From a virus: 22,812 nt of DNA. The notes under the pieces are model-generated. The model did not search any database. It saw only the letters and a program-made list of their open reading frames with translations, and had not been told where the DNA came from. The DNA is taken from UHGV virus genome UHGV-0339689; one strand, given 5' to 3'. The position numbers and the translations under genes were made by a program. Each line of letters begins with the position of its first letter. The stretch's first letter is position 1. Positions 12,090 through 21,993 of the stretch are shown piece after piece.

Positions 12090-12107
12090 TGATGATTTTA
12101 TAATAAT

Positions 12108-12130
12108 AAAGGCCGTTCGTTACGGCCTTT
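12108..12130 (-). terminator. Hairpin, possible partial terminator after moron gene
   Basis: AAAGGCCG-TTCGTTA-CGGCCTTT followed on minus strand by ATTATTAT. Confidence 0.35.
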
Positions 12131-12141
12131 ATTATTGATAT

Positions 12142-12662: not shown

Positions 12663-13415
12663 TTATCTCGTCACCTTTCTCAATTGCGTTTCAGCATATG
12701 CTTCTTCCTGCCAGCACTTTGTTACTAGTTTATCAATTACGTCTGCATATCCTTTGTACCACTGATAATCAGTCAGGTCTGGAACCAGCTTCTGGACATG
12801 ACGTCGTGCCAGTGTAGTTGGTAAACGGCTAAACCGGTTTCCATTGCAACGCCCACAAATCTTATAAACAGGCGTGCCATGAAGCCGGGTCCTTTTTTCA
12901 TCCAGGACAATACCTTTACCCTTACACCCTCTGCACGCTGTGCTGACTTCTCCCTTACCATGACAATGCTGACATAGTTCCTTCACCCACTCTTCCTTGA
13001 TAACAGATTCCCCGCTTCTGGAGTGTTTCACCACCTCGCGCAATACATTATGAAATCCAGTACCAGCACAATGCTCACAGCGAGCCTTACTTGCCGCAGA
13101 CCTGGAATAATCAGCAAAGGCAAAATTCACAAGGTAAGGAATGATCTGTAGCCGGGTTTCTTCACTCAATTTATTCAATGTCGGGTTATCCAGTGCCATC
13201 GCGTAATTGAGCAGACCTTCAATCGCAAACTGAGGATCCTGAACACCAACTTTTGCCAGGAATAAGGCAAACCCAAGCGGTGCTTTCGACTGCACCATCC
13301 CCTGCGCAGCCATCACATCCGTAATCGTTAAACCACCAGAGCCTGTCGCCGGTGCGTCATCGCTCAGTTTTGGAGATTTCGGGGAGTAATATTTCGGTAA
13401 GGCTTCAAGGTTCAT
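12663..13415 (-). CDS. Q: Late-gene antitermination protein Q (phage 82/21-type, zinc-binding)
   Basis: 250 aa with Cys clusters (CEHCAGTG, CQHCHGKG, CRGCKGKG, CGRCNG); positioned immediately upstream of PR'/tR' and lysis cassette. Confidence 0.8.
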   Translation of the reverse strand: MNLEALPKYYSPKSPKLSDDAPATGSGGLTITDVMAAQGMVQSKAPLGFALFLAKVGVQDPQFAIEGLLNYAMALDNPTLNKLSEETRLQIIPYLVNFAFADYSRSAASKARCEHCAGTGFHNVLREVVKHSRSGESVIKEEWVKELCQHCHGKGEVSTACRGCKGKGIVLDEKRTRLHGTPVYKICGRCNGNRFSRLPTTLARRHVQKLVPDLTDYQWYKGYADVIDKLVTKCWQEEAYAETQLRKVTR

Positions 13416-15242: not shown

Positions 15243-15632
15243 TCAGGCGGCTGCACCCGCCGTTTTCTCGTACTTACTGATAGTGATCTCGACCTTCCCT
15301 TCCGGGATAACCGGTCCCCACTCCACCAGCATTCTTTTCACCTGACTGTCGTCTTCCCACACACCCGCGTGGGTCAGGGCGTCAAACAGCGCCTTGTTAT
15401 AGTTGTCCAGATCGCGGATCCGGTTATCCGGAGGAAACAACACGATCTCCACTGAAGCAGGTGCCGACGTTGGTTTTGGCAGACGACGTAACTGCTCAAC
15501 TATTGCTGCACACGCCGCGCTCTGGAATTTGCGCCCCGCCGCGCTTATCAGGCTCTTACCTGCAAACGCCCCTTTGTTGGGGTGTCGCCAGTACGTGTTC
15601 ACGCTGGGCGGGAAAGGCAGAATCAGCTTCAT
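15243..15632 (-). CDS. rusA: RusA-family Holliday junction resolvase
   Basis: 129 aa; MKLILPFPPSVNTYW... and DLDNYNKALFDALTHAGVWEDDSQV motifs typical of RusA. Confidence 0.85.
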   Translation of the reverse strand: MKLILPFPPSVNTYWRHPNKGAFAGKSLISAAGRKFQSAACAAIVEQLRRLPKPTSAPASVEIVLFPPDNRIRDLDNYNKALFDALTHAGVWEDDSQVKRMLVEWGPVIPEGKVEITISKYEKTAGAAA

Positions 15633-19186: not shown

Positions 19187-19209
19187 ATATGTACCTCCGA
19201 TGTACATAT
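19187..19209. promoter_or_regulatory. Operator palindrome ATATGTAC-N7-GTACATAT overlapping PR -10 and start site
   Basis: Perfect 8-bp inverted arms read directly in sequence. Confidence 0.6.
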
Positions 19210-19273: not shown

Positions 19274-19948
19274 ATGAAAACAATCCATGACATCCGGCGG
19301 TCTAACGCCAGAAAACTGAGAGATGGTGTTGGCGGGAATTCTTCCTTTGCCACTATGATTGATCGCGAGCCAACCCAGACCAGCAGGTTTATGGGAGATG
19401 GTGCTACTAAAAATATCGGTGACAGCATGGCACGACACATCGAAAAATGTTTCGACCTGCCTGTCGGATGGCTCGATCAAGAACACCAGACAACGAACAT
19501 CACAAAAAAACCTGATGTTTCAATCACTAATAAACAAATCACATTAGTCCCTGTCATATCATGGGTACAGGCCGGAGCATGGAAAGAAGTTGGATATTCT
19601 GAGGTTGATTTGAGCACAGCAGAAACGTATCCCTGCCCTGTCCCCTGTGGGGAAATGACTTATATCTTGCGGGTGATAGGTGATTCAATGATTGATGAGT
19701 ACCGCCCGGGAGACATGATTTTTGTCGATCCTGAAGTACCTGCCTGCCACGGTGACGACGTTATTGCATTGATGCACGATACAGGTGAAACCACCTTCAA
19801 AAGGTTGATAGAAGATGGGACACAGCGTTATCTCAAAGCGTTAAACCCAAACTGGCCTGAGCCTTACATTAAGATCAACGGTAATTGCTCTATAATTGGT
19901 ACAGTGATTTTCTCAGGAAAACCAAGAAGATACAAAATCAAAGCCTAA
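19274..19948 (+). CDS. cI: CI-type repressor with S24 (LexA-like) autopeptidase domain
   Basis: 224 aa; Ala-Gly site (VQAGAW), catalytic Ser in GDSM and Lys in TFKRL; divergent from cro. Confidence 0.85.
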   Translation: MKTIHDIRRSNARKLRDGVGGNSSFATMIDREPTQTSRFMGDGATKNIGDSMARHIEKCFDLPVGWLDQEHQTTNITKKPDVSITNKQITLVPVISWVQAGAWKEVGYSEVDLSTAETYPCPVPCGEMTYILRVIGDSMIDEYRPGDMIFVDPEVPACHGDDVIALMHDTGETTFKRLIEDGTQRYLKALNPNWPEPYIKINGNCSIIGTVIFSGKPRRYKIKA

Positions 19949-19987: not shown

Positions 19988-20016
19988 TTGACAATGTACC
20001 TTTGAGATACATAATG
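19988..20016 (+). promoter_or_regulatory. Candidate PL-like promoter (-35 TTGACA, 16-17 bp, -10 CATAAT) with two TGTACC operator-like half sites
   Basis: Consensus -35 at 19988-19993; AATGTACC repeated at 19993-20000 and 20015-20022. Confidence 0.4.
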
Positions 20017-20437
20017 TACCCAAGAGAAACAACAAACAGGCAGGACGTCCACGAAGTAGCCGCCTGGGGCATATGAAGTCCAAGATGATTCGTTAGCAAC
20101 AAAACGCCCATAGGACGCTTCGCTCTTTAACAATTTGAATATTTTCAGCGTCAATGATCTGTTTAGCTCCCTACAAGTAAATGTAGCGTAGCACCATGAT
20201 AAATCCTGCTAGTGTTTAGTTAAAAATCGCGCGAGAGCAAGAACGACGTGAGGGCAGGCAATATTGATAGTGTTATTGCTATTAGTTTATCAAAAATATT
20301 TAGACGACCCAGATGAATATTTTTAATACATACTCCCCCTAATTTAACAGGAGTAAATGTTGATGAATAACGAGACATCTATACTCAACAATTGTATGAT
20401 ATGAACAATTATATAACATAATGTAGGAAAAATAAAA

Positions 20438-21034
20438 ATGGATTGGCATGACCTTATATCAAAGGTAATTATCGGACTTGTTACAGGCTCAATCGCAGCT
20501 TACTTAACTGCGCGATATGCACTCGGCCGTTATTATAAAGAAAAATGGTGGGACAAAAGAATAGATTTGTATACGCAATTAGTTGACTGTGTTTATCTTC
20601 TAAAAAACACAGCTGACTATTGGTATAAACATGAGTTACATCACGCTTCACAATTCCCAACCTACTTTAGTTACAAATCAAAAGAAGAAAATGAAATCCT
20701 TAGCAAATCTTTCTCTAATGAGCTTGAAAAACTCAGTAGAATAGGTGAGCTATCTTCATTATTCTTAACAGAAGAGTGTGGGGATAAAATCCGTTCATTC
20801 ATTGAAAATGAAGAAAATCTATTTATACAATGGGAGTTTGATAGTATAGAGTTGATAGATGCCCACAAGTCAAGACTTGATAAATTAAAAGTATTACTAG
20901 ACGATATTATCTCTGAAGCAAAGAGAGAGCTTAAGGTCAATAAAAAACATAACAGCCTAAAGAATATAAAGTGGTCCATAACTATGCCAGACCAAAAAAA
21001 TGATGAGCCAATTAATTATTACGACAATCATTAA
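20438..21034 (+). CDS. Hypothetical membrane-anchored protein (198 aa), low-GC moron; candidate phage-exclusion/defence effector
   Basis: SD AGGAAA 7 nt upstream; N-terminal TM helix (ISKVIIGLVTGSIAAYLTARYAL) then charged Lys/Glu/Asn-rich soluble domain; flanked by terminators; GC clearly below flanks by eye. Confidence 0.75.
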   Translation: MDWHDLISKVIIGLVTGSIAAYLTARYALGRYYKEKWWDKRIDLYTQLVDCVYLLKNTADYWYKHELHHASQFPTYFSYKSKEENEILSKSFSNELEKLSRIGELSSLFLTEECGDKIRSFIENEENLFIQWEFDSIELIDAHKSRLDKLKVLLDDIISEAKRELKVNKKHNSLKNIKWSITMPDQKNDEPINYYDNH

Positions 21035-21044
21035 AACACTTTAG

Positions 21045-21067
21045 AACCCGCTGGGCGGGTTTTATTC
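21045..21067 (+). terminator. Rho-independent terminator after moron
   Basis: AACCCGC-TGG-GCGGGTT followed by TTTATTC. Confidence 0.65.
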
Positions 21068-21222
21068 AAATATACTTTGCACATCACAAATAAAACTATA
21101 ACGTCCTTCTTCTTTTCCTAATATCTTATATCTACTTATTTATAAGCGGCTTACAGATCTTCAACAGATAAACCTAATGAAGGCGACAATGTTCTGATGA
21201 ATAGCCACCTTTTTACTCAACT

Positions 21223-21291
21223 GAAAGCGCGTTCTGTCCCTTGTCATTAAGTGCCAGTTCGTTAAGTCCAAAACCTCCGGAACGCGCTTTC
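21223..21291. other. Perfect 12-bp inverted repeat GAAAGCGCGTTC / GAACGCGCTTTC separated by 45 nt (candidate structured RNA or protein site)
   Basis: Arms at 21223-21234 and 21280-21291; lies in the 390-bp noncoding leader upstream of the YfdR-like gene. Confidence 0.4.
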
Positions 21292-21456
21292 AATTGAGTG
21301 GGGAAAATAACTGGCGATGGCAGCCGCCCGTTGCACTAAGTGCCTCTGGATGGGGCATTTACTGAAACGAAACCAAAACTTTTAATCGCCTTATGGCGAG
21401 GGATTCGTGCAACCAAAAATCGTGCGGTGCAGCGCACCAATTAAGGAGAACTAACG

Positions 21457-21993
21457 ATGAGTTTTATCCAGACTCTTACCGGTAAGAAGTTCAATTATAT
21501 CAACTCCACCATTGACGATATTTATATCGAGGATATCGCCGGTGCGCTTTCAAATATCTGCCGCTTCGCGGGACACTTGCCGGATTTTTACAGCGTGGCG
21601 CAGCATTCCGTTCTGTGCAGTCAACTTGTGGCGCCAGAGTTCGCCTTTGAAGCGTTAATGCATGATGCAACAGAAGCGTATTGTCAGGACATCCCCGCGC
21701 AACTGAAACGCCTTCTTCCTGACTATAAACGGATGGAAGAAAAAATAGACGCCGTAATCCGTGAGAAATACGGGTTACCCCCGGTTATGAGCACGCCCGT
21801 GAAATATGCCGATCTCATCATGCTGGCAACCGAACGCCGCGATCTCGGGCTTGATGATGGCTCTTTCTGGCCTCTACTGGAAGGTATCCCAGCAACAGAG
21901 ATGTTCAAAGTTATTCCACTGTCGCCAGGCCATGCCTACGGGATGTTTATGGAACGTTTTAACGAGTTATCGGAGTTACGCAAATGCGCATGA
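21457..21993 (+). CDS. yfdR: HD-domain phosphohydrolase, YfdR-like (5'-deoxynucleotidase family)
   Basis: 178 aa; HD motif (ALMHDATEAYCQD); SD AAGGAGA 7 nt upstream; resembles remembered CPS-53 YfdR. Confidence 0.7.
   Translation: MSFIQTLTGKKFNYINSTIDDIYIEDIAGALSNICRFAGHLPDFYSVAQHSVLCSQLVAPEFAFEALMHDATEAYCQDIPAQLKRLLPDYKRMEEKIDAVIREKYGLPPVMSTPVKYADLIMLATERRDLGLDDGSFWPLLEGIPATEMFKVIPLSPGHAYGMFMERFNELSELRKCA

Follow-up and report, generated by a model that had tools for sequence, protein, structure and literature searches.

What is a near-perfect inverted repeat doing in the noncoding DNA ahead of the early-left genes of a lambdoid prophage, and does it act as DNA or as RNA? The activation of early-left genes in lambdoid prophages without a recognisable N is poorly understood, and prophages of the e14-like and mEp390-like kinds abound in E. 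coli and in Enterobacter, Klebsiella and Citrobacter. Here, we place the repeat in its operon, follow its arms through relatives and weigh the functions that it may have. In the explanation that we favour, the repeat would encode a long RNA hairpin, IR-B, made as transcription from pL, the repressor-controlled promoter expected to transcribe it, runs through the cargo region into the early-left genes.

The repeat and its place in the early-left region

The window, by which we mean the whole 22,812-nucleotide stretch analysed (UHGV virus genome UHGV-0339689), belongs to the e14/mEp390 type of lambdoid prophage and carries an S24-peptidase (LexA-like) repressor gene at 19274–19948 (+ strand), genes for Cro/YdaS-like and CII (CP76) proteins on the − strand and, further along, those for RusA, KilA-N and the Q antiterminator. 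Identical DNA (100%) is present in E. coli ECONIH4 and in some 15 further complete genomes. Operators of the form TGTACC-N5-(G/T)GTACA lie at 19190 and 19240 in the repressor/cro intergenic region (oR), and two further copies that match them lie at 19995 and 20015, just past the repressor's terminator. There, pL/oL (19988–20031, +) consists of a near-consensus promoter with the hexamers TTGACA and CATAAT separated by 16 nt (19988–20015) and overlapped by the operators TGTACCTTTGAGATACA and TGTACCCAAGAGAAACA. As pL lies upstream of the repeat and points towards it, with IR-B roughly 1.2 kb downstream on the same strand, the earlier note was right to speak of an early-left leader.

The DNA from pL to the repeat holds a leader of roughly 400 nt, an AT-rich moron ORF (20438–21034) and the intrinsic terminator of that ORF (21042–21064, +), which is the sole + strand terminator predicted between pL and the hairpin in the window; because it intervenes, transcription of the hairpin from pL requires read-through. 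The repeat itself sits between this terminator and a gene at 21457–21993, and its description as noncoding is likewise correct. RefSeq names the product of that gene an HD family hydrolase, and its only Pfam match, YfbR-like, scores below the curated cut-off (18.7 compared to 25.9 bits).

The pL leader also contains a perfect rrn-type boxA, CGCTCTTTAACAA, at 20121–20133 (+), about 100 nt past pL, with a small hairpin, AACGCCCATAGGACGCTT, just upstream at 20103–20120; this unit of small hairpin and boxA is conserved in 20 related loci. It suggests modification of pL transcription complexes by Nus factors (NusB/NusE), although the DNA from pL to the early-left genes has no gene recognisable as N-like.

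The 12-nt inverted repeat had been reported as GAAAGCGCGTTC and its exact reverse complement around a 45-nt spacer, and we located both copies (21223–21234 and 21280–21291). The perfect match is in fact 13 nt long (TGAAAGCGCGTTC at 21222–21234 and GAACGCGCTTTCA at 21280–21292), and a repeat finder extends the arms to 20 nt (21215–21234 and 21280–21299) with a single C/A mismatch. As + strand RNA the helix reaches about 26 pairs, with TTTTT at 21210–21214 pairing with GGGGA at 21300–21304, and its predicted folding energy of −35.6 kcal/mol (z = −4.8) was equalled by none of 200 shuffled sequences. A perfect 12-nt inverted repeat with a spacer of 3–100 nt is expected 0.13 times by chance in the window, and one with 20-nt arms and at most one mismatch 1.2 × 10−4 times, which shows that the repeat is not random.

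We delimit its parts on the + strand as follows. The 5′ arm of IR-B (21210–21236) comprises the T-tract (21210–21214), ACTCAAC (21215–21221), the core TGAAAGCGCGTTC and TG (21235–21236); the 3′ arm (21278–21307) comprises CG, the core GAACGCGCTTTCA, ATTGAGT (21293–21299) and GGGGAAAA (21300–21307), the window's version of a conserved Shine–Dalgarno (SD)-like sequence, GTGGAGAA, that pairs with the T-tract. A stem of about 20–26 bp hence closes an interior of 41–45 nt, here 21237–21277, that has no conserved secondary structure and carries the motif (G)TTCGTTAAGTCC, which reads GTCGTTAAAT in relatives with TCGTT invariant. The TTAAGT direct repeat noted in the spacer is present in two copies (21247–21252 and 21262–21267) and is not kept outside the window, since relatives carry TTAAGT and TTAAAT.

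Several ready identities do not fit. The whole window has no match in Rfam 15 at the gathering threshold, and permissive scans of 20950–21550 and of the mEp390 leader returned only chance-level matches. Inside the element and the leader, a promoter scan and inspection by eye found poor or non-conserved hexamers only. Beyond the 3′ arm the window reads GGGGAAAATAAC (in relatives, GTGGAGAAGC) and has no U-tract, the loop is 41–45 nt long and a terminator scan was negative, which rejects an intrinsic terminator or attenuator; attenuation, one of the roles offered for the stem by the earlier note, is unlikely because the U-tract is absent.

Conservation and covariation of the arms

In blastn searches, matches to other E. 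coli prophages (77–88% identity) and to phage mEp390 (76%) begin at about 21208 and reach the ATG at 21457, and the genes flanking this segment on both sides differ among these relatives; a leader that stays constant while the genes on either side are swapped is the pattern expected of a regulatory RNA, and the hairpin is its most conspicuous part. A pattern scan based on the arms found homologous repeats in at least 120 IMG/VR contigs and also matched six enterobacterial species genomes, Kluyvera, Silvania, Pseudescherichia, Enterobacter and Citrobacter among them. The leader is present in 44 of 5,426 complete E. coli genomes, always in a prophage and at a median of one place per carrying genome, and this distribution, with one copy in the window, excludes a multi-copy repeat of the MITE, REP or ERIC kind. 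The prophage is not known to be represented in E. coli K-12 data sets.

The relatives reveal an upstream architecture that the window has partly lost. IR-B comes directly after a T-tract in 123 of 124 distinct contexts and, in the relatives that we aligned and folded, this T-tract is the end of a long hairpin, t1 (11-bp stem, 17–18-nt loop). In at least 51 contexts a second, similar long hairpin, IR-A, lies 80–280 nt upstream of IR-B; its distance downstream of the predicted pL start is about 8 nt in locus L012, which has the window's immunity type, about 40 nt in a Klebsiella phage (L202) and about 400 nt in mEp390. A tRNA-Arg gene lies within 700 nt upstream of IR-B in 21 of the 124 contexts. 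Three related loci (L002, L003 and L006) carry it at 2333–2409, and in L002 it is a tRNA-Arg(UCU) directly after the 3′ arm of IR-A, before t1 and inside the pL leader. Relative to pL, t1 and the downstream hairpins, IR-B is fixed in orientation and position. In the window, ARAGORN finds no tRNA and a covariance model search no IR-A; what is left of t1 is a remnant of its 3′ arm with the T-tract (GCCACCTTTTT), its 5′ arm having been lost, and the mosaic junction with relatives falls at about 21205. We also looked by eye for alternative terminator and antiterminator pairings between t1 and the hairpin and rejected them, as the paired segments do not overlap.

Because the first pattern constrains the arms, we ran a second homologue scan anchored on a conserved 17-mer 170 nt downstream of them. 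It recovered the same family together with versions whose arms are wholly different and still complementary (CATAGATGCAAGCGCGCTCCGG with CCGGAGCGCGCTTWCATCTGTG, ACAACAGGAAAGAGCACCACC with GGTGCTCTTCCCTGTTGT, and ACAAAACAGACAAGGGCA.CACC with GGTGCTCTTGTCTGTTTTGT); CAACTGAAAGCGCGTTC with GAACGCGCTTTCAGTTG also belongs to the series of arm pairs that differ wholesale and keep their complementarity. It further recovered single changes in arm 1 that restore pairs opposite variant arm-2 bases (L149 and L186). Among 36 distinct sequences found via this downstream anchor and not via the arms, standard pairs occupy 83.8% of cells compared to 39–55% when partners are slid by 1–3 columns, 11 of 27 pairs have changes on both sides, and the covariation score (0.152, shuffle mean 0.089) was reached by none of 500 shuffles. 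Thus, base pairing is under selection. The earlier note had staked its structural reading on conservation and compensation in relatives; the repeat is conserved and its arms do covary, so that a base-paired nucleic-acid structure is supported, whereas the specific functions offered with it are not thereby established.

Against a role as RNA, the sequence of the stem is more conserved than pairing alone demands. The repeat might serve as DNA, as half-sites for a protein, as an extruded hairpin or cruciform, or as a linker for the homologous or site-specific exchange of cargo cassettes such as the moron and the tRNA. The arm sequence CAACTGAAAGCGC is strongly conserved and common to IR-A and IR-B, mosaic junctions fall exactly at the element with homology to relatives starting at about 21208, one relative (L173) retains only arm 2, and the cargo between IR-A and IR-B varies, all of which would suit such a role. 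However, some phages have replaced the arms wholesale with loop, flanks and neighbours unchanged, and in L012 the arms of IR-A and IR-B differ within one phage, so no single sequence-specific protein would read them. The element is also independent of immunity type and operators: the repressor operator is TGTACC-N5-GGTACA in the window and quite different in mEp390 and L002, which rejects the repeat as an operator, as the hairpin is common to these immunity types. These observations disfavour the dimeric protein site proposed at the outset.

For an exchange site, the ends of the repeat in some relatives resemble the integron motifs RYYYAAC and GTTRRRY (ACTCAAC ... GTTGAGT in L082 and L130), yet each genome has a single copy and a dedicated recombinase is lacking; an attC-like site in particular is rejected by the lack of IntI, of an extrahelical-base pattern and of further copies, and the likeness counts only towards the DNA-level reading. 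A ParB-like gene that is common in relatives is absent from the sequenced early-left part of the window and from the identical ECONIH4 prophage, and the hairpin is kept in both. We consider a function at the DNA level unlikely.

The losses upstream raise a different doubt, that the repeat has no present function in this prophage and is the remnant of a duplicated leader unit (IR-A/t1 and IR-B/M2, M2 being the next hairpin downstream), that has persisted through recent descent and has hitch-hiked with the ribosome-binding region downstream of it. The loss of IR-A and of the t1 5′ arm from the window, the resemblance of the leader units to tandem duplicates and the near-clonality of the prophage in E. 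coli (16 records at 99% identity or more) point that way. Against this, pairing is kept by compensatory changes across divergent lineages and genera, which requires selection on the structure for the family as a whole, and the window's copy is among the best-paired versions of that family. A functionless remnant is, on balance, improbable, and so is its survival by descent and hitch-hiking.

The downstream hairpins and the functional strand

IR-B is the first module of a noncoding leader of about 250 nt (21210–21456) that extends to the ribosome-binding site in front of the first early-left gene and reads, in order, IR-B, GTGGAGAA, M2, M3, M4, the stretch GGGATTCGTGCAACCAAAA, M5, SD and ATG. 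M2 (21313–21328, +), a small GC-stem hairpin (GGCG-ATGGCAGC-CGCC) with a (G/T)(G/T)GCAG loop motif, follows IR-B in all relatives. M3 (21329–21369, +; CGTTGCACTAAGTGCC..GGCATTTACTGAAACG) is also a hairpin, long and imperfect, which includes G.U pairs on the + strand and whose changes in relatives are compensatory, and M4 (21386–21399, +; TCGCC-TTAT-GGCGA) has compensatory variants such as CGCA..TGCG. The conserved stretch GGGATTCGTGCAACCAAAAA (21400–21419, +), the anchor of the unbiased homologue search, is mostly unpaired in the centroid fold. M5 (21422–21437, +; GTGC-GGTGCAGC-GCAC) shares the loop motif of M2, stands 7 nt before the SD and, on the − strand, has the pattern of an intrinsic terminator, a hairpin followed by GATTTTTGG. 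The leader ends (21445–21459, +) with the SD GGAG (21445–21448) and the ATG at 21457 of the HD-hydrolase (YfdR/YfbR-like) gene. In aligned relatives M2–M5 carry compensatory changes as well, and the fold of the whole leader has z = −3.1.

Hairpins with the loop of M2 and M5 form a recurrent class, with a conserved loop, G(G/T)(G/T)GCAGC, on a GC-rich stem of 4–6 bp in which sequence changes are compensated. Three lie in the window (21313–21328 and 21422–21437 on the + strand and 15246–15261 on the − strand, the last between rusA and the KilA-N gene), where about 0.2 are expected by chance, and 443 in 172 related loci. Most of the copies listed lie 2–10 nt upstream of an SD (often AAGTGGAGAA) and start codon. 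Related loci also have copies away from the leader: those on its early-left (downstream) side lie on the + strand and those about 6 kb to its other side lie on the − strand, in keeping with the direction of the operons. An A-run precedes M5 and the copy at 15246, giving an intrinsic terminator pattern on the antisense strand. Possible roles for the small hairpin are to bind a protein in the manner of boxB, to act as a translational operator or to stop antisense transcription.

Two further observations concern the layout of the leader. Its 3′ part (M4, GGGATTCGTGCAACCAAAA with 21400–21419 in the window, M5 and SD) is also found alone in L143-type loci, standing in many related phages between a gene ending ...FIGNFKA* with a terminator-like hairpin and an HD-hydrolase gene, and is therefore a separately mobile intergenic module. 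In addition, the 5′ arm of M3 (GTTGCACTAA, 21330–21339) is complementary to part of the invariant stretch (TTCGTGCAAC, 21404–21413), with 6 of 7 positions kept in relatives, and an alternative pairing or pseudoknot within the leader is possible.

We found no sign that the leader is translated. Stops prevent any ORF of the window from running through the repeat, the frame is not kept between mEp390 (L001) and L002, and start codons are absent in most relatives. The same applies to an N-terminal extension of the first gene, as in mEp390 gp35, which is annotated from a GTG right after the hairpin: its frame is not conserved and the starts are missing. The mEp390 annotations concerned, gp36 and the gp35 N-terminal extension that starts right after the hairpin (L001 2547–2789 and 3099–3260), are probably non-coding; the homologous region of a Klebsiella phage has a compensatory hairpin (CCTCGGAAGAGACGAGG versus CCCGGGAAGAGTCCGGG), and the frame through M3 is not kept.

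Which strand of IR-B carries the function is harder to read. The functional molecule might be a − strand RNA, an antisense hairpin that is the reverse complement of IR-B, and the core stem lends itself to this: on the − strand it is continuous in nearly all relatives, as the commonest, mEp390-like relatives have three A.C or C.A mismatches on the + strand where the − strand has G.U pairs. Counted over core cells, there are 17 G.U pairs and 116 mismatches on the + strand compared to 68 and 65 on the − strand. The mEp390 hairpin accordingly folds far better on the − strand (−45.8 kcal/mol, z = −5.7) than on the + strand (−32.2, z = −2.0), and for 54 of the 74 sequences in the unbiased set the element is more stable when folded as − strand RNA. 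The lower stem, between the T-tract and GGAGAA, says the opposite and pairs only on the + strand, with 110 Watson–Crick pairs, 100 G.U pairs and 33 mismatches there compared to 110, 14 and 119 when read on the − strand.

Wobble pairs thus give opposite answers for the core and the lower stem and do not settle the functional strand; that they pick no single RNA strand would also suit a role in DNA. The core asymmetry derives from about four inherited substitutions and is not statistically compelling. M2–M5 favour the + strand, the rest of the leader folding better on it in 72 of 89 sequences, and the small hairpins and all neighbouring genes follow the + strand operon. No − strand promoter is predicted in or beside the leader, and M5, acting as a − strand terminator, would shield the leader from antisense transcription by stopping such transcripts short of the hairpin. 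A functional antisense RNA therefore seems very unlikely; because the wobble asymmetries trace to a handful of inherited substitutions, we treat the + strand as probable and not as proven.

Candidate functions of the leader hairpin

Taken together, the sequence comparisons indicate that IR-B is probably a functional + strand RNA structure acting in cis, and we class it among the structured leader RNAs that act in cis in phage early operons; it forms part of a larger leader that is conserved. Neither Rfam 15 nor our literature searches on mEp390, mEp021, HK639 and the N-leader RNase III site turned up a description of it.

Known RNAs of lambdoid early operons offer two starting points, one of which is antitermination. 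IR-B could be a put-like RNA that modifies RNA polymerase by itself, or a platform for an N-like or Nus-dependent factor, so that transcription from pL passes terminators. A hallmark of put-type antitermination is read-through of terminators that requires the zinc-binding domain of the RNA polymerase β′ subunit. The lack of a recognisable N-like gene, the rrn-type boxA of the pL leader and the invariant TCGTT loop motif would agree with this, as would the layout of relatives, where t1 lies between IR-A and IR-B and IR-A is upstream of t1 and close to pL; mEp390, moreover, belongs to a collection of Nus-dependent phages (PMC11893012). HK022 put RNA, about 70 nt long, forms two adjacent stem-loops (stem I and stem II) with a triplex and occurs in both operons as putL and putR (PMC9378689). 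Like IR-B it is a cis-encoded structured RNA of an early operon in a lambdoid phage without a recognisable N, and putL starts near pL, as IR-A does in some relatives (within about 8–40 nt) (PMC9378689).

The resemblance ends there. In place of the two adjacent stem-loops of put (PMC9378689), the consensus of IR-B is a single long closing stem around a largely unstructured interior with no conserved inner hairpins. A covariance model run with filters off matches only 21204–21311 in the window, with no second copy in the pR operon or elsewhere, and its matches in 27 related loci all lie within the pL leader. Nor does the sequence agree, as the extracted HK022 putL has no resemblance to the hairpin and a blastn search with the leader does not match HK022. 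Antitermination of the put kind, as a version of the role suggested by the earlier note, fails on both structure and copy number.

A lambda-type nut site is equally rejected: the hairpin itself has neither a boxA (CGCUCUUUA-like) nor a boxB, the boxA of the window being elsewhere, and a nut boxB is a short hairpin of about 15 nt, unlike the 20–26-bp stem and 41–45-nt interior of IR-B. Position also argues against antitermination, since IR-B lies downstream of t1, and in the window of the moron terminator too, and cannot act on either. Over 3.2 kb of the mEp390 early-left operon, moreover, no + strand terminator is predicted that it could serve to pass. We therefore hold an antitermination RNA to be an outside possibility.

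The other starting point is processing, and we tentatively favour, as one possible function among several, a double-stranded RNA processing or stability element of the RNase III type in the pL transcript. Processing there would release the early-left mRNA from RNA of the leader, moron or tRNA upstream and would set the fate of the 5′ end of that mRNA. We lean to this role because the stem is of RNase III length, because the lambda N leader provides an analogue and because sister hairpins bracket the tRNA and terminator of relatives. In the window, the stem (about 26 pairs with one mismatch) has the length required by RNase III, about two helical turns or more (about 20 bp), an enzyme that tolerates internal loops; in mEp390-like relatives the + strand helix is interrupted by the three A.C mismatches. 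In those relatives where IR-A and IR-B bracket the tRNA and terminator, IR-A abutting the 5′ end of the tRNA-Arg, the context is typical of RNA processing. Other roles at the RNA level are not set apart from RNase III processing by any of this; the stem might equally slow decay from the 5′ end, keep Rho from loading or offer a platform to a protein.

The lambda N leader reportedly contains a large RNase III-sensitive hairpin between nutL and the N ribosome-binding site. Both that hairpin and IR-B are long hairpins in the untranslated leader of a pL operon, past a boxA site and before the first early-left gene, and the window's stem, like that of lambda, is long enough for RNase III. They differ in that IR-B has no sequence similarity to the lambda hairpin, is separated from pL by a moron and about 1.2 kb in all, has four further conserved hairpins after it and precedes a first gene that is not N; its RNase III site is only a candidate. 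Intercistronic RNase III hairpins also occur in the early mRNA of phage T7 and in rRNA and tRNA operons, where long stems flank RNAs that are separated by processing. The tRNA-Arg between IR-A and IR-B in relatives has a similar layout, whereas the interior of IR-B is much larger than that of T7 sites and any cleavage site within it is again a candidate.

A third comparison is the dicF module in the dicB operon of the Qin prophage, in which DicF is reportedly delimited by a terminator and by sites of RNase III or RNase E processing, and read-through expresses the genes downstream. Like the leader hairpins, it is a non-coding RNA module in the repressor-controlled early operon of a defective lambdoid prophage, and the unit of relatives that runs from IR-A to t1 shares its layout. 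Unlike it, the locus has no Rfam DicF match, the window has no IR-A/t1 unit and IR-B comes after a terminator rather than before one.

A broader proposal, to which we give a rather low probability, is that the hairpin is part of an undescribed and widespread RNA-based control module made up of pL, IR-A, in some cases a tRNA, t1, IR-B, the small GC hairpins and the ribosome-binding site. It is just as doubtful whether, within such a module, the long and small hairpins together decide between a short RNA ending at t1 and a processed, translatable early-left mRNA. If so, this would be a new control of early operons, factor-independent or dependent on a new factor, in lambdoid phages without a recognisable N. 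If IR-B is a processing or stability signal, the hairpin would set the expression of excision, recombination and accessory genes after induction and would insulate the early-left genes from upstream cargo such as morons and the tRNA. The family is large and diverse enough to provide a clean covariation data set.

Two observations lie outside the hairpin. In L002, a small ORF just downstream of pL (1441–1660, +) reaches the point where sieB, annotated on the opposite strand, starts. Its product has a zinc-ribbon-like CxxC motif and a stretch rich in arginine, VRRERRNRSRLEK, that recalls the arginine-rich motifs of N proteins; the ORF has no counterpart in the window. At 12102–12136 the window has a perfect 15-bp AT-rich hairpin (AATAAAGGCCG...CGGCCTTTATT), about 530 nt downstream of the Q gene (12663–13415, − strand), which is probably part of the late-operon terminator region acted on by Q.
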